A DNA stretch of 64,000 nucleotides from Candidatus Falkowbacteria bacterium RIFOXYA2_FULL_47_19 (GTDB lineage Bacteria; Patescibacteriota; Patescibacteriia; Patescibacteriales; UBA12075): assembly GCA_001780275.1 (NCBI GenBank), contig MFGB01000020.1, positions 168,813 through 232,812 on the forward strand, given 5' to 3'. Positions 55,324 through 64,000 of the stretch are shown here, in pieces (positions within the stretch are counted from its first letter, which is position 1; every line of letters starts with the position of its first letter). A program made the translations under genes and the position numbers. The notes under the pieces were generated by a model. That model was not told the origin of the DNA. It was given only the letters and a program-made list of their open reading frames with translations, and did not search any database.

Positions 55324-55716
55324 ATGAAAACTGTTTATATTTTTGGCAATCCGCTTTTGTCTTTTGATAACCTTCCCTTAAAACTCATGCCCGATCTTGC
55401 TAAAAAATTTCCGGCTATAACATTTTTGTCCATTGACCCGAACGAGAATTTAAAATTTACAGACAAGAAACCGGTAATCATAGACACGATATTCGGCATT
55501 AAAAAAGTGGCTGTTTTGCATGATATCGATAGGATCATTACTGATAAAATCTACTCCGCCCACGATCTTGATCTGAGCTTTAACCTTAAACTTCTTGCTA
55601 AACTTGGCTATATCGAAAAAGTTACGATTTTGGGGGTGCCGCCGGGAATAAAAAAAGAAGAAGCGTTAATGCAGCTTTATCCTTTGATCGAAAGATCTTT
55701 TTCCGGTATCGAATAA
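55324..55716 (+). CDS. hydrogenase maturation endopeptidase-like protein (HycI/HyaD family)
   Basis: Collinear with HycI blocks: VYIFGNPLLSFDN (cf. VGNSMMGDDG), VIIDTIFG (cf. IVDA), SAHDLDL (cf. TTHNMPL), VTILGVPP (cf. IFLGIQP). The metal-ligand D/D/H positions are present. Confidence 0.55.
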   Translation: MKTVYIFGNPLLSFDNLPLKLMPDLAKKFPAITFLSIDPNENLKFTDKKPVIIDTIFGIKKVAVLHDIDRIITDKIYSAHDLDLSFNLKLLAKLGYIEKVTILGVPPGIKKEEALMQLYPLIERSFSGIE

Positions 55717-55729
55717 AGCGAGAATCTTT

Positions 55730-56536
55730 ATGAAGACCAAGCAAACCAAATTAATAGAATTTAAAAACCGCCAGGGCGAAATTCTGCGCGGCATATTGAC
55801 CTTTAACCGTTACAGCAACCCGCAACTGGTAGTTATGATGGCTGGTTTTGAAAGAACAGCAACCGGCGAAAAAAAATTTAAGGCCTTAGCCGACGCTTTG
55901 GTCGCCCAGGATATTCCGTCATTTCGTTTTGATCACACGGGCATTGGTTTGTCGGACGGTGATTTTTCTAAAATAAATACAGCCGGGTTAGGAGACGAGC
56001 TTGTCCGCGCCGTTCGGGCCGCAAAAAAGAAACTGAGCTTTGAGGGCGTGGCTTATTTCGCCCACAGCCTCCCGCCCTGTGTTATGGCGGATGAAAAAAA
56101 ACGAAATCTGTTTAAAAAAATAATATTCATGTCCCCGGCCCTGAATCAGAAGGAGCTTCTGCGTTACTGGTTCACGCAAAAAGCCATGAAAAAAGTCCGG
56201 CCGCAAACCAAAATAACCTGGAATAATTATAAAAAATACCTTAATGAAAATGATTTCTTGGAATATTGCCGCCAGAAGCAAAAAATAACCAAGGCGCATT
56301 ACGTCGGCAGCGAATATTTCCTGGAAAACAGCCGACAGGACTATTCCTCCCAGATCCCCGACTCGGAAAACATCCTCCACATCCATGGGGAAAAAGACGA
56401 GGTGGTGCCCATAAACAGCCTGAACGTAAAATTTAAGAACAGGATAATGGTGCCGGAGGGCGATCACGACCTGGAGAGTCCGGACCTGTTATCGCAATGG
56501 CTTGTTCCGGCGGTAAACTTTCTTAAGAACGATTAG
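55730..56536 (+). CDS. alpha/beta-hydrolase-fold protein
   Basis: Nucleophile-elbow-like YFAHSLPP (AxSxP rather than GxSxG), GEKDEVVP, GDHDL (His). Confidence 0.65.
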   Translation: MKTKQTKLIEFKNRQGEILRGILTFNRYSNPQLVVMMAGFERTATGEKKFKALADALVAQDIPSFRFDHTGIGLSDGDFSKINTAGLGDELVRAVRAAKKKLSFEGVAYFAHSLPPCVMADEKKRNLFKKIIFMSPALNQKELLRYWFTQKAMKKVRPQTKITWNNYKKYLNENDFLEYCRQKQKITKAHYVGSEYFLENSRQDYSSQIPDSENILHIHGEKDEVVPINSLNVKFKNRIMVPEGDHDLESPDLLSQWLVPAVNFLKND

Positions 56537-56590
56537 AATTTGATCCATAATTTTTTGCATCAAAGCTCTTTTAAAATCCAGGATCGACGG

Positions 56591-56611
56591 ACGACACCGG
56601 GTCGTTTTTTT
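56591..56611 (+). terminator. intrinsic terminator
   Basis: ACGAC-accgg-GTCGT followed by T7. Lies inside the track's 5' extension of the prs ORF. Confidence 0.65.
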
Positions 56612-56644
56612 ATATTTAAAACAAAAAATACGAGGAGGTGCAAA

Positions 56645-57721
56645 ATGCCCGGGGGAAAAGAATACGACGAATTAAAAGGTCAATTTAACGGCCTGCTGAC
56701 AATGGTAGATTCCTTAAAAAAAGAAGTAGAAGAATTAAAAAGCCGCCGGGGAGCCAACAACGGTTTTTCCGTATTTTTAGGAAATTCCAATAAGCCTTTG
56801 GGAAAAAAAATCTGCTCTTATCTTAAGAAGCAAATCAGCAACGCCAAGGTCACGACCTTCAGCGATAATGAAGTGCAAATTGAAATAAAAGAGAATGTCC
56901 GCCAAAAAGATGTTTATGTGATTCAATCGATCTGCTCTGATGACAATCGGTCGGTTAATGATTATTTGACGGAACTTTTGTTGATGATTTCTACTTTTAA
57001 ACGAGCGTCGGCCGGCCGGATCACGGCGGTTATTCCTTATTACGGCTACGCTCGTCAAGATAAAAAAGTGGCTCCGCGGGTGCCGATCAGCGCCAGAGAT
57101 ACCGCTGATCTTCTCCAGACGGCTGGTGCCGGCAAGATTATTACCATGGACCTGCACTCGCCCCAAATTCAAGGATTCTTCAATATTCCCGTGGATCATC
57201 TCTGGGCCCGTCCGGTTCTGGTAAATTATCTGGGCCGGAAATTTTCCGCTGAGATCGAACGGGGGGAATTAACCATAGTCGCGCCGGATGTCGGTCGGGC
57301 CTCGGTAGACGAAGCTTACGCCGAACGCTTGCGGGCCGGTCTCGCCATAATATACAAACGCCGTGAACAGCCAAACGAAGTTAAAACCATGAGGCTTTTA
57401 GGAAACGTACGCGATAAGATCGTCGTTATTCTTGACGATATGGTGGATACCGCCGGCACCATAACCGCCGCCGGTGAGCTCGTTATGAGCGAAGGGGCGA
57501 GAGAGGTATATGCCTGCGGCATACATCCCGTCCTGTCTGGTCCGGCCGTGAAAAGGATAGAAAAATCGGTTTTTAAAAGCGTGATCGTGACCGATACGGT
57601 CAATCTTAATAGCGACGCTCAAGCCTGCGACAAATTCGAAGTGGTTTCGATTGCCGAGACATTCGGCGAAGCTATTATCCGCTGTCATCGCGGCGATTCT
57701 GTCACCTCGCTGTTTTTATAA
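56645..57721 (+). CDS. prs: ribose-phosphate pyrophosphokinase with ~45-aa coiled-coil N-terminal extension
   Basis: GAGGAGGTG SD then the ATG at 56645. YGYARQDKK, the PRPP-binding loop ILDDMVDTAGT, and the flag region. Confidence 0.93.
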   Translation: MPGGKEYDELKGQFNGLLTMVDSLKKEVEELKSRRGANNGFSVFLGNSNKPLGKKICSYLKKQISNAKVTTFSDNEVQIEIKENVRQKDVYVIQSICSDDNRSVNDYLTELLLMISTFKRASAGRITAVIPYYGYARQDKKVAPRVPISARDTADLLQTAGAGKIITMDLHSPQIQGFFNIPVDHLWARPVLVNYLGRKFSAEIERGELTIVAPDVGRASVDEAYAERLRAGLAIIYKRREQPNEVKTMRLLGNVRDKIVVILDDMVDTAGTITAAGELVMSEGAREVYACGIHPVLSGPAVKRIEKSVFKSVIVTDTVNLNSDAQACDKFEVVSIAETFGEAIIRCHRGDSVTSLFL

Positions 57722-57734
57722 AAAATACAAACAA

Positions 57735-57761
57735 AAAGCGCCTTAAATAAAGGGCGCTTTT
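57735..57761 (+). terminator. intrinsic terminator
   Basis: AAAGCGCC-N10-GGCGCTTT stem followed by T. Confidence 0.7.
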
Positions 57762-57787
57762 AAATTACGCGCGTTGTCCCTCGCGTC

Positions 57788-57816
57788 TTGACAAAAAAGA
57801 AAAAATACGCCATAAT
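57788..57816 (+). promoter_or_regulatory. promoter TTGACA-17-CATAAT
   Basis: Consensus -35 with 17-nt spacer, ~70 nt upstream of the first HD gene. Confidence 0.65.
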
Positions 57817-57887
57817 TAAACATTGAATATAAATATTTTTTAAATTCAAAAAAAACAAATCAAAGCACCGAACAACAAGGAGGATCG

Positions 57888-58847
57888 ATGAACATTGACA
57901 ATTTAGTAAAATATAGCCTAGAGGCAAACCAGCTCCTGATTACGTACCGCAGCGGCTGGGATTTTATCGGCAAAGACCGGGCGGAAACCGTCGCTTACCA
58001 CTCCTTCTACACAGCCGTTTTGGCTCACTGGATTTCCCTTGAAGAAAGAAAGCAGTATCCCCATATTGACCCGCACAGAACGCTTCTGATACCTTTGTTT
58101 CACGACTTGCACGAAGTAAGAACAGGCGATCCCAACTCTGTTTACAAAACTTACTTTCCCCGGCACAAAGAGTCGGAGGCAAGAGCCTCTCGGGACCAGA
58201 TACGACGGACGGAACCCGACACCAAGGTAAAGCTCTTGCGCTACCATTTTGATTTTGAAAGCCATTCCACCCTGGCGGGAAAAATCGCCAAGGACGCGGA
58301 TTGGCTGCAAATGATTTTCATGGCCAAAAAATTCTTAGACGAAGATTTTCCCTTGGCGCAACGCTGGATAGACGGCACCAGAGAAAAACTTCGGACAAAA
58401 ACCGCCCAGGATATCGCCGCTAAAATCATAAATACCGATAACGTTGACCTTGAAACGATTTGGCCGCGTCTAAACGCTCATGAATGTTTTTTGACCGGCG
58501 TTCTGGCCTTTGTTTTGACCGATCCAAAAACCAACGACCCGGAAGAAAGCGCTTTTTGCGCCCTAATTCCGTTTATCAGGCTCGTGGCTGAAATTACCGC
58601 CCTTAGTATCGGTCTGAAGCCGCCGATCGATAACGATTACCATTTTTCGGAAACGGCGCTCATAACTGCCGCGAATGCTAACAACTTGCAATTCATCATC
58701 CGGGCGGCCAAAAAAGATAAGGATATTACCCTTACTCGCCGACAACTGGAGTACATAGCGTCACAGATAAAAACCGAACCGGCCCGGGAGCTGGCCGCCA
58801 GATTCATGTCCCCCGAAATAAAAAAAGTCGTCTGGTGGGAACAATAA
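57888..58847 (+). CDS. YfbR-type HD-domain phosphohydrolase (5'-deoxynucleotidase-like) with ~120-aa C-terminal extension; paralog 1, intact signature
   Basis: AAGGAGG SD. RSGW, ETVAYHS, LFHDLHEVRTGD (HDxxExxxGD) and KDADWLQ match the YfbR metal/catalytic motifs. Confidence 0.75.
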   Translation: MNIDNLVKYSLEANQLLITYRSGWDFIGKDRAETVAYHSFYTAVLAHWISLEERKQYPHIDPHRTLLIPLFHDLHEVRTGDPNSVYKTYFPRHKESEARASRDQIRRTEPDTKVKLLRYHFDFESHSTLAGKIAKDADWLQMIFMAKKFLDEDFPLAQRWIDGTREKLRTKTAQDIAAKIINTDNVDLETIWPRLNAHECFLTGVLAFVLTDPKTNDPEESAFCALIPFIRLVAEITALSIGLKPPIDNDYHFSETALITAANANNLQFIIRAAKKDKDITLTRRQLEYIASQIKTEPARELAARFMSPEIKKVVWWEQ

Positions 58848-58888
58848 AACCGGAAAAATAAAGCTTACCTAAAATCAGGAGGCAAAAA

Positions 58889-59767
58889 ATGAGCCTGGAC
58901 AATTTAGTGAAATATATTCTGGAAATGAACCAGCTTCTGATCACGCCGCGTACCGGATGGGATTTTATCGGCAAGGGGCAGGCGGAAACAGCCGCAGAGC
59001 ACTTGATCGAGACGGCGGTTTTCGCCGATATAATAGCCCGAAAAGAAAAAGAACAAAACGTTGCCATTAATCCAGATCGGGCCTTCGCTATCGGACTTTT
59101 CCACGACGCCCCCAAAGTAAGGACCGGGTACCCGAATCAACAATATTTTTCTAATCATAAAACAGCGGAAGAAGCGGCTTTTAACGATCAAATTCGTTAT
59201 TTGAATAATTATGCGCGACTGAAGCTGACGTTATACCGGAAACACTTCGAAGGCGGCGATAGCCCGGAGGGCGTGATCGCTAAAGACGCAGATCTACTGC
59301 AATGGATTTCGCGGGCCAAAGAATTCGCGGATAAAGGCTATCCTTTGGCTCATTATTGGATCGAGGAAGCCAGGAAAAAACTTCAAACCGAAACAGCCCG
59401 GAAGTCGGCGAAAAACATCATTAGCGGCGAAGATGATATTTATTCGCCCATAGACGCCCATGAAATTTTTTTGTCCTCTGTCCTGGCTTTTGTTCTGGCT
59501 TGTGAAAGCGATCGTTTTGATCCGGAGGCCGCCGCCAGATATATTTCGGATATCAACCGGGGCGGATTCAGGGATGAATTCATTGCTTTAACCAAAGACG
59601 CCCGCAATCTGCAATTTATCGTCCGGGCGGCAAAGAAAGACGCTCACCTGAATTTAAACGAACGGCAGATAAAATATATCGCCGCTCAGATAAAAACCGA
59701 ACCGGCCAGCGGTCTGGCCGCCAGATTCATGTCCCCGGACATACAAAACGTAGCTTGGTGGGGATAA
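58889..59767 (+). CDS. YfbR-type HD-domain paralog 2 with degraded catalytic signature
   Basis: CAGGAGG SD. RTGW, ETAAEHL, LFHDAPKVRTGY (E->K, D->Y), KDADLLQ. The C-terminal ~55 aa are nearly identical to paralog 1. Confidence 0.7.
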   Translation: MSLDNLVKYILEMNQLLITPRTGWDFIGKGQAETAAEHLIETAVFADIIARKEKEQNVAINPDRAFAIGLFHDAPKVRTGYPNQQYFSNHKTAEEAAFNDQIRYLNNYARLKLTLYRKHFEGGDSPEGVIAKDADLLQWISRAKEFADKGYPLAHYWIEEARKKLQTETARKSAKNIISGEDDIYSPIDAHEIFLSSVLAFVLACESDRFDPEAAARYISDINRGGFRDEFIALTKDARNLQFIVRAAKKDAHLNLNERQIKYIAAQIKTEPASGLAARFMSPDIQNVAWWG

Positions 59768-59793
59768 GAAAACTTTAACACAAAACTATATCG

Positions 59794-59817
59794 CCCGTGC
59801 CTGAACACGGGTTTTTT
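59794..59817 (+). terminator. intrinsic terminator
   Basis: CCCGTG-cctgaa-CACGGG followed by TTTTTT. Confidence 0.8.
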
Positions 59818-59941
59818 ATTACCTGAAAATTTTATTTTTTCGTTAAATTTCGTAAATATTCGTTGCTTTCGTATTTTGACTTATAAACATCCGGGCACTA
59901 ATCGAAAGAAAAACATGAAATCGCTGAAGACTTATCTTGTT

Positions 59942-59970
59942 TTGACAAACGGACGATTTTGGCTTACTAT
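59942..59970 (+). promoter_or_regulatory. promoter TTGACA-17-TACTAT
   Basis: Lies inside the track's 5' extension of the glyA ORF, which supports the ATG at 60014 as the real start. Confidence 0.6.
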
Positions 59971-60013
59971 AAATATAGCTTTTAAATTATTCAAAAACTT
60001 AAAACCTAAAAAA

Positions 60014-61267
60014 ATGGACTATAAAAATTTAAAACAGAACGACGAAACTGTTTACAAATTGATCCTAAAAGAACAAGGTCGGCAGGCCAGGGAGCTTGAA
60101 ATGATCGCTTCGGAGAATTATGTTTCCCCGGCGGTTATGGAGGCGATGGCCTCGCTCCTGACCAACAAATACAGCGAGGGTTATCCGGGAAAAAGATATT
60201 ACGGCGGCAATCAAGTAATAGACGATGTTGAGACTCTGGCCATAGAGCGGGCGAAAAGATTATTCGGCGCCGATCATGTGAACGTCCAGCCGCTTTCCGG
60301 CTCTCCGGCCAATGCCGCCGTCTATATGGCTTTTTTAAAGCCCGGCGATAAGGTTTTGGGCTTGAAGCTTGACCACGGCGGACATCTTTCGCACGGACAT
60401 CCGGTAAATTTTTCCGGCATGCTTTATAATTTCGTCCAATACGGAGTCGATTCGAAAACCGGCCGGATCGACATGGATGAAGTGGAAGAGATCGCCAAAA
60501 AAGAAAAGCCGAAAATGATCGTGGCGGGCTATAGCGCTTATTCGCGGGAAATAGAATGGGAAAGATTCAAGACGATCGCCGATAAGGTCGGCGCTTATAC
60601 TTTCGCCGATATCGCCCATACTGCGGGGTTGATCGCCGCCGGCGAAATGGACAGTCCGGTCGGGATCTTCGACATCATCACGACCACGACGCACAAAACG
60701 CTTAGGGGACCGCGGGGAGCGGTAATTATGTGCAAGGAAGAATATGCGGCCCAGGTAAATAAGGCGGTTTTTCCGGGGATGCAGGGCGGGCCGCACGATC
60801 ACATCACGGCCGCCAAAGCGGTCGCTTTCGGCGAGGCCCTGAAGCCGGAATTTAAGGTTTACGCGGCCCAGGTTATAAAAAACGCCAAAACTCTGGCGGC
60901 GGAATTCGCGGAAAAAGGCTATCGGGTAATATCCGGCGGTACGGATAATCATCTGATGGTGGTCGATATGACGAATAAGGGCCTATCGGGCAAGGAAGCG
61001 GAAGCTGTTCTTGATCGGATCGGTATTTCCGTTTCCCGTTCGACCGTTCCGAACGATCCCAATCCTCCCATGAATCCTTCCGGCGTCCGTTTCGGAACCC
61101 CGGCCCTGACCACCAGAGGGATGAAAGAAGAAGAGGTAAAGCGGATCGCCGGCTGGATCGAAGCCGCTATTGAGAATAGGGAGAATATCGAGGTATTAGA
61201 TTCTATAAAAAACGAGGTGGAAGAATTATGCGAAGCTTTTCCGGTTCCCGGAATCCATAATTCGTAA
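60014..61267 (+). CDS. glyA: serine hydroxymethyltransferase
   Basis: ELIASENYVS, YSEGYPGKRYYGG, TTTTHKTLRGPRG (PLP Lys). Confidence 0.97.
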   Translation: MDYKNLKQNDETVYKLILKEQGRQARELEMIASENYVSPAVMEAMASLLTNKYSEGYPGKRYYGGNQVIDDVETLAIERAKRLFGADHVNVQPLSGSPANAAVYMAFLKPGDKVLGLKLDHGGHLSHGHPVNFSGMLYNFVQYGVDSKTGRIDMDEVEEIAKKEKPKMIVAGYSAYSREIEWERFKTIADKVGAYTFADIAHTAGLIAAGEMDSPVGIFDIITTTTHKTLRGPRGAVIMCKEEYAAQVNKAVFPGMQGGPHDHITAAKAVAFGEALKPEFKVYAAQVIKNAKTLAAEFAEKGYRVISGGTDNHLMVVDMTNKGLSGKEAEAVLDRIGISVSRSTVPNDPNPPMNPSGVRFGTPALTTRGMKEEEVKRIAGWIEAAIENRENIEVLDSIKNEVEELCEAFPVPGIHNS

Positions 61268-61279
61268 CTTTTTATTAAG

Positions 61280-62167
61280 ATGACAAAAAAAAATAATTTA
61301 AAAAACATCATAGACGGCAAACTATTAGCCGATAAGATCAAGGATGATATTGTTAAAGAAATAGTGGGCATAAATTACGGCTTGGCGGAAGCGGCTTGGA
61401 ACAGGCCTAATCTGGCGATCATCCTGATCGGAGACCGGGAAGATTCTAAGCTATACGTTGAAATGAAAGAACGGGAAGCAAGGCGGGTGGGTATCGATAC
61501 TAATATTTACCGGTGTGAAGCCGATACCCCCGAAGAAGAGATATTTTCCATGATCGATTTTTTGAATAAAGATAAAACGATAGACGCAATATTGATCCAA
61601 CTCCCCCTGCCGGGCGGTTTTGATACTGACGGACTGATATTGGCGATAGACCCGGCTAAAGACGTTGACCGTTTTCATCCGGACAATCTTAAAATATTAT
61701 TCAGCACCTGCAGCCACGACCAGGTTATGCCGCCGGTATTGGCCTCGGTCCTCGAAATGCTTAAAAGCATCAGATATGATCTAGTGGGCAAGCAGGCTTG
61801 CGTTATCGCCAACTCCGATATCTTCGGCCTGTCTTTGGCCAAAGTCCTCGAGTGCCGGGGCGCAAAAACAATTATAACCAAAGCCGATGATAATCGTTTA
61901 AATAACAAAACCGGAAAGGCCGATATTTTAATCTCGGCAGTCGGCAAAAAAAACTTGATAACCGCGGATATGGTAAAGCCGGACGCGGTCGTGATCGATA
62001 TCGGGATCACGAAAGAGGGAAAAAAGATCTCAGGTGACGTCGATTTCGATAACGTCAAAAAAAACGCCGGCTATATCACGCCGGTGCCGGGCGGAGTCGG
62101 GCCGATGACGATCGCGATGTTATTCAAGAATACTTTGGAGTTATATAAGCGAAGGAAGAAGAGCTAA
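61280..62167 (+). CDS. folD: bifunctional methylenetetrahydrofolate dehydrogenase/cyclohydrolase
   Basis: SKLYVEMKEREA, ILIQLPLP, VDRFHP, PVPGGVGPMTIAML. Confidence 0.95.
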   Translation: MTKKNNLKNIIDGKLLADKIKDDIVKEIVGINYGLAEAAWNRPNLAIILIGDREDSKLYVEMKEREARRVGIDTNIYRCEADTPEEEIFSMIDFLNKDKTIDAILIQLPLPGGFDTDGLILAIDPAKDVDRFHPDNLKILFSTCSHDQVMPPVLASVLEMLKSIRYDLVGKQACVIANSDIFGLSLAKVLECRGAKTIITKADDNRLNNKTGKADILISAVGKKNLITADMVKPDAVVIDIGITKEGKKISGDVDFDNVKKNAGYITPVPGGVGPMTIAMLFKNTLELYKRRKKS

Positions 62168-62301
62168 TAATCAAAAATCCCCAATTTTAAATATCAAATT
62201 ACCATAAACATTGATTTAATAATGTTTTTTATTTTGAATTTGATTTTTTAGAATTTATTTGGAATTTGGGATTTGGTGCTTGGAATTTTATCCACAAATA
62301 A

Positions 62302-64000
62302 ATGACTGACATAACCAACAAAAAACAACAAACCATCGAGCTTTTAAAAATACATTGGGGCTATGATTCTTTCCGTCCCGGGCAGGAACGGGTTATAGAT
62401 AATATTCTCGCCGGAAAATCCACCGTGGTCATAATGCCGACCGGCGGCGGAAAATCCTTATGTTTTCAATTGCCGGCTTTAGTGCTCTCCGGCGTTACTC
62501 TCGTTATTTCGCCCCTGATCGCTCTTATGAAAGACCAGGTGGACGGCCTCCATAGGCTGGGCATACCGGCGACTTTTATAAATTCGTCCATTAGCGCCGA
62601 CGAAACAGCCGAACGTCTGGCGGCCGTTAAAAGCGGTAATTTTAAACTTCTTTATATCGCTCCGGAAAGATTTTATAATCCGGAATTTGTAGCCGCTCTT
62701 AAGGATATGGAAGTAAGCCTTTTCGCCGTGGACGAAGCCCATTGCATCAGCCAATGGGGCCACGATTTCCGCCCGAGCTATATAAAATTACGGCAGGCGA
62801 TAGAAGCGGTCGGCAACCCGACGGTGGCCGCCTTGACGGCTACGGCCACGCCGGAAGTGCGGGAAGATATCGTCAAACAGCTTGATTTAAAATCGCCTGA
62901 GCTGGTCGTTACCGGTTTCTCCCGTCCCAATCTTCAATTCGGCGTAATACATGCCAGGGAATCGGAAAAGCCGCGCTTCATTTTAGACGCGATCGCGAGC
63001 GCTCCGGATGAGCACGGTATTATTTACACAAGCACCCGGGCGCGGGTAGATAATCTTACCCAAGTACTTTTAGAAAATAATATTGAAGCGGTCGGATACC
63101 ACGCCGGTCTTGATGCCGACGACCGGCGCTGGGTCCAGGGAAATTTTATGTCCGGCCAAGCCAAGGTTATCGTCGCCACCAACGCTTTCGGACTGGGAAT
63201 AGACAAGGCTAATATCCGGTATGTGATCCACTACGATATGCCGGGCACGATCGAGGCTTATTACCAGGAGGCCGGACGCGCCGGACGCGACGGCAAACCG
63301 AGTTTTTGTCTCCTGCTTTTTAATTCCCGCGACCGGCATCTGCATGAATTCTTCATTAAAGGCGATAATCCGCCGCCGGAATTGATCGCGGAAATCTATG
63401 AAACCCTCAAGGCTTACGAGTCTGACACTGTCCTTATCACGTACGCCGAGCTTGGCAAGCTTCTTACGGAAAACGTGCCGGAAATGGCGATCGGCACCTC
63501 TTTAAAACTTCTGGAAAAAGAGGGTTATATCGCCCGGACGCGCGAAAAAAGCGGCAACGCTTACTTAGCACTCCTTAAAAGCGCCGATACGATCCGGGAA
63601 ACTTTCGGCGCGCGGGCGAAAAAACAAAAAGAAATATTCGACGCGCTTTACGGTAAATACGGCCGGGAGATGGAAAACGGCTGGGATATAAACCTGGAGG
63701 AGGTGGCGGCGGTAATCGGCGCCGGCCGGGAGTCTTTAGCCCGTTTTATTCGCAAGCTTTCGGAGCAGGGCTTGGCTGAATACAAACCTCCTTTCCGGGG
63801 GACGGAAATAAAGATACTCAAACGGGTGGAAACGGATGAATTAAAAATCGATCGCGAGGCTCTGGCCCGCAAAATCAGACACGCCCACCAAAAACTTGAC
63901 CGTATGGAAGATTATGTTTATGACTTCGGCTGCCGCCAGAAGTACATTCTCGGTTATTTCGGCGACCCTGAAGCTAAAGCGTGCCGAAAGTGCGACACCT
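62302..64000 (+). CDS. recQ: ATP-dependent DNA helicase RecQ, 3' end outside window (absent from the ORF track)
   Basis: Translating from the ATG at 62302 gives [58 protein letters not shown]-like [24 protein letters not shown] and the C-terminal Zn region [11 protein letters not shown]...CRKCD. The frame stays open to base 64000. Confidence 0.93.

Follow-up and report, generated by a model that had tools for sequence, protein, structure and literature searches.

A tandem pair of HD-domain genes

The 64,000-nt stretch of DNA analysed here (the window) belongs to contig MFGB01000020.1 of Candidatus Falkowbacteria bacterium RIFOXYA2_FULL_47_19 (positions 168,813 to 232,812 of the forward strand). 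It contains two adjacent genes, paralog 1 (P1) and paralog 2 (P2), whose products are related to the Escherichia coli phosphohydrolase YfbR and correspond to proteins A2303_07505 and A2303_07510, respectively, of Candidatus Falkowbacteria bacterium RIFOXYB2_FULL_47_14. The two proteins are 47% identical over their full length (BLASTP E-value 1e-87). Both appear to combine an N-terminal HD domain with a degenerate second copy of this domain, and the active site of P2 is altered. The original prediction, made from the DNA letters, had described two adjacent genes, each with a strong Shine-Dalgarno sequence, served by one promoter and one terminator. All these elements are present, and the two open reading frames (ORFs) are intact and co-oriented (Table 1). 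A terminator scan found none on the + strand of the 41-nt spacer between P1 and P2, and the operon-like layout of the pair is supported. Four related contigs, labelled L001, L002, L003 and L005, were compared with the window. The promoter motif of P1 is also kept 5' of its orthologs in L001, L002 and L003, the hairpin that follows P2 is also found 3' of the single HD gene of L001, and the P1-P2 spacer is identical in L003. In an Rfam scan of positions 56000-62500 no structured RNA was found, the sole match (E-value 0.53) being far under the gathering score.

Table 1. Coordinates of the P1-P2 locus and its signals within the window.
Feature	Position	Strand	Evidence
Promoter, sigma-70-like, TTGACA-17-CATAAT, 5' of P1	57788-57816	+	consensus scan, 11/12 matches
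Shine-Dalgarno sequence of P1, AAGGAGG	57877-57883	+	read from sequence
P1, HD_3/YfbR-like domain with putative fused degenerate HD copy	57888-58847	+	ORF, 319 aa
P1 N-terminal catalytic HD domain, aa 1-192, complete	57888-58463	+	Pfam HD_3 61 bits; 8/8 YfbR residues
P1 motif H72-D-L-H-E76-V-R-T-G-D81, canonical HDxxExxxGD	58101-58130	+	
P1 putative C-terminal pseudo-HD domain, aa 193-319, truncated, 0/4 metal ligands	58464-58844	+	hhalign
Block with 21- and 23-nt runs identical between paralogs (QIKTEPA..LAARFMSP), P1 copy	58764-58813	+	
Shine-Dalgarno sequence of P2, AGGAGG, within the 41-nt spacer	58877-58882	+	read from sequence
P2, two-part architecture like P1 with altered active site	58889-59767	+	ORF, 292 aa
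P2 motif H72-D-A-P-K76-V-R-T-G-Y81 (E->K, D->Y)	59102-59131	+	
P2 putative C-terminal pseudo-HD domain, aa 185-292, two deletions relative to P1	59441-59764	+	sequence comparison
Block with 21- and 23-nt runs identical between paralogs, P2 copy	59687-59736	+	
Intrinsic-terminator-like hairpin with T-run, 3' of P2	59793-59818	+	consensus scan (call at 59793-59812)

Family membership and active site of P1 and P2

That both genes encode YfbR-like members of the HD_3 family, as had been proposed, was confirmed by Pfam comparison. P1 scores 61 bits for HD_3 (PF13023), 42.6 for YfbR-like (PF12917) and 38.9 for HD (PF01966), and P2 scores 36.6, 26.6 and 32.1 bits, all above the gathering cut-offs of 22.5, 25.9 and 22 bits, respectively. 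Among solved structures, the best relatives retrieved by sequence search are AF1432, 1XX7, HDDC2 and YfbR. An AlphaFold2 (AF2) model of P1 reached a predicted local distance difference test score (pLDDT) of 81.4 and a predicted template modelling score (pTM) of 0.84. Foldseek matched it to 4L7E, 4DMB, 1XX7, 1YNB and 2PAQ with a probability of 1.00 and template modelling scores (TM-scores) by target of 0.67-0.75; with the full P1 model as query, only the N-terminal domain was matched.

The catalytic residues were located by aligning P1, P2 and E. coli YfbR (taken from NC_000913.3) with 115 stand-alone HD relatives collected by profile search (Table 2). P1 keeps 8/8 YfbR functional residues and is canonical, as first described. 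The proposed layout of motifs R(S/T)GW, H, HD and KDAD is found in its place in both proteins, the metal tetrad H...HD...D is complete in both N-terminal domains, and P2 also keeps the R21/W24 clamp. In YfbR, H33, H68, D69 and D137 are the metal ligands, and R18, W19 and D77 contact the substrate and position the deoxyribose, D77 touching the sugar 3'-OH; substitutions of these residues are reported to inactivate the enzyme (PMC8177086). For E72, protonation of the leaving group has been proposed, and the E72A mutant is described as without observable activity (PMC3188283). This mutant is represented by PDB entries 2PAR and 2PAU.

Table 2. Functional residues of E. coli YfbR and their equivalents in P1 and P2.
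YfbR	P1	P2
R18	R21	R21
W19	W24	W24
H33	H38	H38
H68	H72	H72
D69	D73	D73
E72	E76	K76
D77	D81	Y81
D137	D138	D135

The E-to-K and D-to-Y changes of P2 fall on the equivalents of E72 and D77, and these columns hold E and D, respectively, in 115/115 of the stand-alone relatives. The alignment to YfbR thus answers the possible objection that the substitutions lie outside the catalytic positions, and the claim that P2 retained its metal-binding His and Asp residues stands. P2 should not be named a 5'-deoxynucleotidase from homology alone.

The C-terminal half as a degenerate second HD domain

Both proteins are about 95-125 aa longer than the 115 stand-alone relatives (median 196 aa), as had been noticed, and the additional segment had been regarded as a novel C-terminal module. 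Taken alone, this half (P1 residues ~187-319) gave nothing meaningful against Pfam or PDB sequences, and a search of the full proteins against NCBIfam returned for this region only a weak match to DVU0772 (E-value 0.098). Profile-profile comparison led to another assignment. A profile of five C-halves aligned with a profile of five N-halves with an hhalign E-value of 5.8e-6, the tail pairing with the DAD helix of its own N-half and the next two helices (ANANNLQFIIRAAKKD...IKTEPARELAARFM opposite KDADWLQMIFMAKKF...LRTKTAQDIAAKII). The whole C-half was collinear with the profile of the 115 HD sequences over 120 columns, from the AEHSF His-helix to the terminal WW (E-value 1.1e-4). In column-shuffle controls, the real scores of 33.8 and 39.9 compared with 13.1 +/- 2.5 and 12.5 +/- 2.5 and were reached by 0/200 shuffles in either case; they stand 8-11 standard deviations above the shuffles, and reversed sequence gave background. 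The front 72 columns of the C-half alone align to the His and HD helices (24.4 versus 11.8 +/- 2.5, E-value 0.0016, 0/100 shuffles).

Other observations point to the same relationship. A phmmer search weakly aligned the P1 tail, as a second domain, to the C-terminus of AF1432, and the stand-alone protein P0005 has a terminus (...RTEPARRLA...WW) that resembles the C-half tail. In the P1 model, helices 129-151, 157-165, 171-182 and 188-191 are echoed by helices 255-274, 284-292, 297-307 and 311-314. The second copy has 0/4 metal ligands: AEH has become AHE (off by one), the HD motif is lost, and DAD is replaced by NAN, DAH or DAR. The pLDDT of the C-half is mostly 85-93 in the full-length model versus 56.6 (pTM 0.46) when it is modelled alone, which suggests that it leans on the catalytic domain. 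Judging from these alignments, the C-half is a truncated, degenerate HD copy without any metal ligand; the supposed novel module is homologous to the HD domain itself, a known domain after all. When the literature was searched for HD domains in tandem or in degenerate form, only work on the RelA pseudo-HD domain was retrieved, and no described counterpart of the HD plus pseudo-HD fusion was found in the HD_3 family.

Distribution of the C-half and of the tandem pair

An exhaustive hmmsearch with the C-half profile over 1.84 billion cluster representatives gave two matches, the P1 cluster and P2. Further scans found the C-half in one further GTDB species representative genome and in one Joint Genome Institute (JGI) metagenome contig. 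No distant carriers appeared in the exhaustive profile search or in the GTDB and metagenome scans, so that no deeper alignment of the C-half is possible. P1 orthologs, 81-85% identical, are present on L001, L002, L003 and L005. A lone HD gene precedes glyA in L001, L002 and L005, and in the latter two prs lies upstream of it. L003, which comes from ERZ27254852, ends 64 nt past the P1 stop, and these 64 nt match the window spacer and the beginning of P2 (22 nt) without a difference, so that the tandem pair is present in a second assembly. P2 itself is known as a single sequence cluster, the identical protein being found on 9 contigs. The tandem arrangement is thus not conserved, P2 occurring only in the window genome and at the edge of L003. 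Within this narrow clade P2 is an accessory gene and not an obligatory partner of P1. Since P1 orthologs are present without P2, the obligate active/pseudo-enzyme heterodimer that might be imagined for such a pair is unlikely.

Divergence of the two paralogs

Synonymous sites between P1 and P2 are saturated, the proportion of synonymous differences (pS) being 0.76. In the conserved C-terminal tail pS is 0.66, with a synonymous distance (dS) of about 1.6 and a ratio of nonsynonymous to synonymous distance (dN/dS) of 0.14. The proportion of nonsynonymous differences (pN) is lowest in the N-terminal 30 aa (0.15) and the C-terminal 55 aa (0.19). The identical nucleotide runs of 21 nt (58764-58784 = 59687-59707) and 23 nt (58791-58813 = 59714-59736) that had been pointed out are real, and had been ascribed to gene conversion or strong constraint. 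With synonymous sites near saturation, the likeness of the tails mainly reflects constraint at the protein level, and a wholesale recent conversion between P1 and P2 is ruled out by saturation even in the tail. Of the two proposals, constraint accounts for most of the resemblance (dN/dS 0.14), and conversion perhaps for one patch of about 50 nt. The 14-codon block that holds the identical runs has 13/14 codons identical versus a background of 0.49 (permutation p = 0.02); this identity is common with L003 P1 and less so with the single-gene lineages. In L002, 33/36 nt of a patch are identical to P2. Short conversion patches are therefore plausible, and the ~50-nt patch may be a conversion tract.

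On the minus strand of the identical block (58797-58780 and 59720-59703), a CGGCC-N8-GGCCG hairpin with a T-rich run resembles a terminator in both copies. By eye, its stem is kept in L003 P1 and not in L001. This hairpin could be due to chance, or could represent a nucleotide-level constraint adding to the synonymous conservation.

The mutual dS of the P1 orthologs is 0.45-0.7. Compared with these values, the saturated P1-P2 dS indicates that the duplication long predates the divergence of the P1 orthologs from each other, and consequently that P2 was lost in some lineages or moved between strains. The P1 orthologs (window 57888-58847, L002 645-1598, L003 465-1424) are mosaic. Window P1 and L002 are 97-99% identical at the nucleotide level in codons 1-30 and 121-165, and 69-81% in other stretches, and L003 P1 alternates between L001-like and window-like segments. 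This mosaicism suggests that homologous recombination is frequent in the Falkowbacteria populations concerned. A relative-rate test against an outgroup consensus counted 14 unique changes in P1 and 20 in P2 (chi2 1.06, not significant), and the guanine-cytosine (GC) content and codon usage of P2 are native. Accelerated decay of P2 is ruled out by the former and a foreign origin by the latter. The notion of a strain-specific duplication with a decaying P2 is therefore retained as far as restriction to a lineage is concerned; decay does not fit with an intact gene that has a symmetric rate and a preserved metal site.

Comparison with known HD proteins

E. coli YfbR (PF12917, PF13023; PDB 2PAQ, 2PAR, 2PAU) belongs to the same Pfam families as the N-terminal domains of P1 and P2, and a fold match to P1 is predicted. 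It differs from P1 by its low identity (~19% in structural alignment) and by being a homodimer of single-domain chains, P1 being ~120 aa longer through the putative fused pseudo-HD copy; from P2 it differs by its E72 and D77, which are replaced by K and Y in P2. AF1432 (1YOY/1YNB), PF0395 (1XX7), PH0347 (2CQZ) and human HDDC2 (4DMB), which match best in sequence and fold, are HD_3 proteins that are either uncharacterised or of broad specificity. The LFHDLHE(A/V)RT motif is common to them and P1, and AF1432 also has the terminal WW. However, they are single-domain proteins of 173-204 aa that have no second degenerate HD copy. In the alignments shown by the searches, AF1432, 1XX7 and HDDC2 keep the Glu, and AF1432 keeps the Asp. 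OxsA, an HD_3/YfbR-like enzyme of oxetanocin-A biosynthesis (PDB 5TK6-5TKA), has His75 at the D77-equivalent position, where it contacts a non-canonical sugar (PMC8177086); this position thus tunes specificity. Unlike P2, OxsA retains the Glu that comes one turn after HD; it also consists of a single domain and is encoded in a biosynthetic cluster. The pseudo-hydrolase domain of RelA, in the long RelA/SpoT homologs (RSH), is an HD domain without catalytic residues that is kept as a regulatory or structural module beside an active domain in the same chain (PMC8012599). It differs from the locus described here in belonging to the HDxxED (p)ppGpp-hydrolase family, in having a synthetase as partner, and in not originating from an internal HD-HD duplication. 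As judged from sequence comparison, none of the relatives examined shares the putative fused pseudo-HD copy or the K/Y active site.

Genomic neighbourhood

As had been reported, the pair is flanked by prs (56645-57721) upstream and by glyA (60011-61267) and folD (61280-62167) downstream. The mechanical ORF starts TTG 56540 (prs) and TTG 59876 (glyA) probably lie too far upstream; L002 and L005, when compared, favour ATG 56645 (MPGGKEY...) for prs and ATG 60011 (MDYKNLKQ...) for glyA. In L001 (JAZDLN010000031.1, from a related metagenome-assembled genome), the 3' end of an unrelated ORF (1-133), and not prs, precedes the P1 ortholog. Despite the different upstream gene, the HD gene of L001 has kept its promoter-like sequence and its terminator, which suggests that the upstream side was rearranged locally. 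In Ca. Kuenenbacteria and Ca. Moranbacteria, a stand-alone HD_3 homolog lies directly 3' of a gene encoding a 537-563 aa radical-SAM protein (PF04055 and PF16199); the pairs are located at 3221-4834/5001-5603 in L006, 3250-4941/5001-5594 in L008 and 2637-4328/4388-4981 in L009, and in L006 glyA comes next after the HD gene, with folD nearby. This adjacency, kept across two lineages of the Candidate Phyla Radiation (CPR), might hint at function. A tblastn search of the window found no such radical-SAM gene. Further upstream, a 130-aa ORF (55324-55716) shows a weak match to HycI, a hydrogenase maturation protease (22.4 bits, against a 23-bit cut-off).

Proposed history and function

The best overall explanation for this locus, which we consider probable, is that a YfbR-type phosphohydrolase underwent two successive tandem duplications that left a canonical P1 and an altered P2. 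In the first one, the HD domain would have been doubled and fused in frame. The downstream copy would then have lost its first helix, its HD motif and all its metal ligands, becoming a non-catalytic pseudo-HD extension that would pack on the active domain. Since stand-alone HD mono-phosphatases are dimeric, we infer that the fused copy may stand in for the partner subunit. In the second duplication the whole fused gene would have been doubled in tandem, giving P1 and P2, which are presumably transcribed together. P1 is predicted to bind metal at H38, H72, D73 and D138 and to use R21/W24 as clamp, E76 as proton donor and D81 for contact with the 3'-OH. E. coli yfbR is annotated as a dCMP phosphohydrolase (NC_000913.3), and YfbR is described as part of the deoxycytidine route to thymidylate (PMC11592144). 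The stand-alone HD homolog of Kuenenbacteria, like the pair studied here, is located 5' of glyA. From this synteny, the role of YfbR, the full residue set of P1 and its prs/glyA/folD setting, we take P1 to be most likely a metal-dependent 5'-(deoxy)nucleotidase for nucleotide/nucleoside interconversion and salvage. P2 probably still binds metal and a phosphorylated ligand, and would not carry out canonical deoxynucleoside monophosphate hydrolysis.

Several points weigh against this reconstruction. Against the NCBIfam 5'-deoxynucleotidase equivalog model (NF003009), P1 scores 33.7 and P2 21.1 bits, far below the cut-off of 122, so that the substrate of even P1 is only predicted; by their scores, the N-terminal domains are members of the wider HD_3/YfbR-like family rather than YfbR equivalogs. 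The K76/Y81 combination is known from one P2 sequence only, and the overall dN/dS of P2 versus P1-type genes (0.11-0.26), which indicates constraint on P2, is a rough value, synonymous sites being saturated. The pseudo-HD assignment is based on sequence profiles and the helix pattern, with no fold match: Foldseek with the isolated C-half model returned only ferritin-like helical bundles (TM-score ~0.2, meaningless). The hhalign probabilities (85% and 57%) are moderate because the query profile is shallow (effective number of sequences 1.45). These last values, together with the Foldseek result and the lack of Pfam, NCBIfam or PDB sequence matches, could mean that the C-terminal ~130 aa form a genuinely new domain whose likeness to HD helices arose as an artefact of composition or of helicity. 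We find this very unlikely in view of the shuffled and reversed controls, which never came near the real scores (0/200, 0/200 and 0/100), of an alignment collinear across the whole domain and ending at the conserved terminal WW of the family, of the independent placement of the P1 tail on the AF1432 C-terminus by phmmer, of the similar end of P0005, and of the helix lengths repeated between the halves of the P1 model.

The present role of P2 can be read in different ways. It is quite possible, if somewhat short of probable, that P2 is neofunctionalised, i.e. an active phosphohydrolase with another substrate or chemistry, in which K76 would serve as proton donor or phosphate binder, as in HDxxK families, and Y81 would reshape the sugar pocket. 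Lys is the HD-GYP consensus one helical turn after HD (PMC3188283), P2 but not P1 gives weak HDIG and HDOD matches, and OxsA is active on a non-canonical substrate with a substrate-contacting His at the D77 position (PMC8177086); the preserved metal site and clamp and the evolutionary rate symmetric with P1 also fit. On the other hand, the Glu is kept in 115/115 of the closest relatives as well as in YfbR, OxsA, Lin2634, HDDC2, AF1432 and 1XX7, no HD_3 enzyme with Lys at the E72 position is known to be active, and with one P2 sequence only, K76 and Y81 could be recent. Alternatively, a dead P2 could join P1 in a hetero-oligomer as nucleotide sensor or structural partner that tunes P1 activity, an idea we rate as unlikely though far from negligible. 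The loss of YfbR activity reported for E72A and D77 substitutions (PMC3188283 and PMC8177086, respectively) would be compatible with a dead P2, and the RelA pseudo-hydrolase HD is a precedent for a dead HD domain acting as a regulatory switch (PMC8012599). HD monophosphatases and HD diphosphatases form dimers in which activation of one site by the other is an open question (PMC8177086). The co-transcription layout (41-nt spacer, no internal terminator) is favourable as well, and P1 and P2 might have interaction surfaces in common in their first 30 and last 55 aa, where their sequences are closest. Nevertheless, L001, L002 and L005 have P1 orthologs with no adjacent P2, and no other P2-type protein was present among the 1.84 billion cluster representatives; P1 thus evidently works alone. 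Moreover, the four metal ligands and R21/W24 have survived saturating divergence in P2, although a mere scaffold could do without them.

There is little chance, in our opinion, that P2 is a redundant duplicate in early decay, with the active-site changes as first inactivating hits and loss under way as in sister lineages. Its absence from three related contigs, the E-to-K (GAA/AAA) and D-to-Y (GAT/TAC) replacements, each taken as a single-nucleotide change, the two deletions in its C-half and its Pfam score under that of P1 (36.6 versus 61 bits) would be in line with such decay. However, the ORF of P2 is intact and preceded by a strong Shine-Dalgarno sequence, and P2 retains all metal ligands, shows no acceleration relative to P1 and is found as an identical protein on 9 contigs; synonymous divergence between the paralogs is saturated, yet dN/dS remains between 0.1 and 0.3 and the tails are strongly conserved. 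Taking the sequence evidence together, a changed substrate or chemistry appears slightly more likely for P2 than a purely regulatory dead role, with some room left for another role altogether. A further idea, which we regard as improbable, is that the fused pseudo-HD fills the homodimer interface to form, in each protein, a single-chain dimer with one live and one dead site, while P2, its metal site preserved and its acid/base and sugar contacts exchanged, would add a third state in which it senses a nucleotide and modulates P1.

Significance

The locus is a neat example, restricted to one lineage, of an enzyme that was duplicated and diverged, and not a new kind of system. Its reach in biology is limited: the clade concerned is a narrow one, relatives can dispense with P2, and there is no sign of a new system type. 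Within one small CPR locus, two duplication rounds of a housekeeping nucleotidase would have had three outcomes, namely an intact domain, a domain whose active site is altered, and two degenerate copies, of which each protein carries one in fused form. For annotation, the analysis corrects a likely mislabel, and the extra 120 aa would not constitute a new domain. The HD plus pseudo-HD fusion, confined to a few Falkowbacteria genomes, could help to settle whether dimers of HD mono-phosphatases require two live sites.

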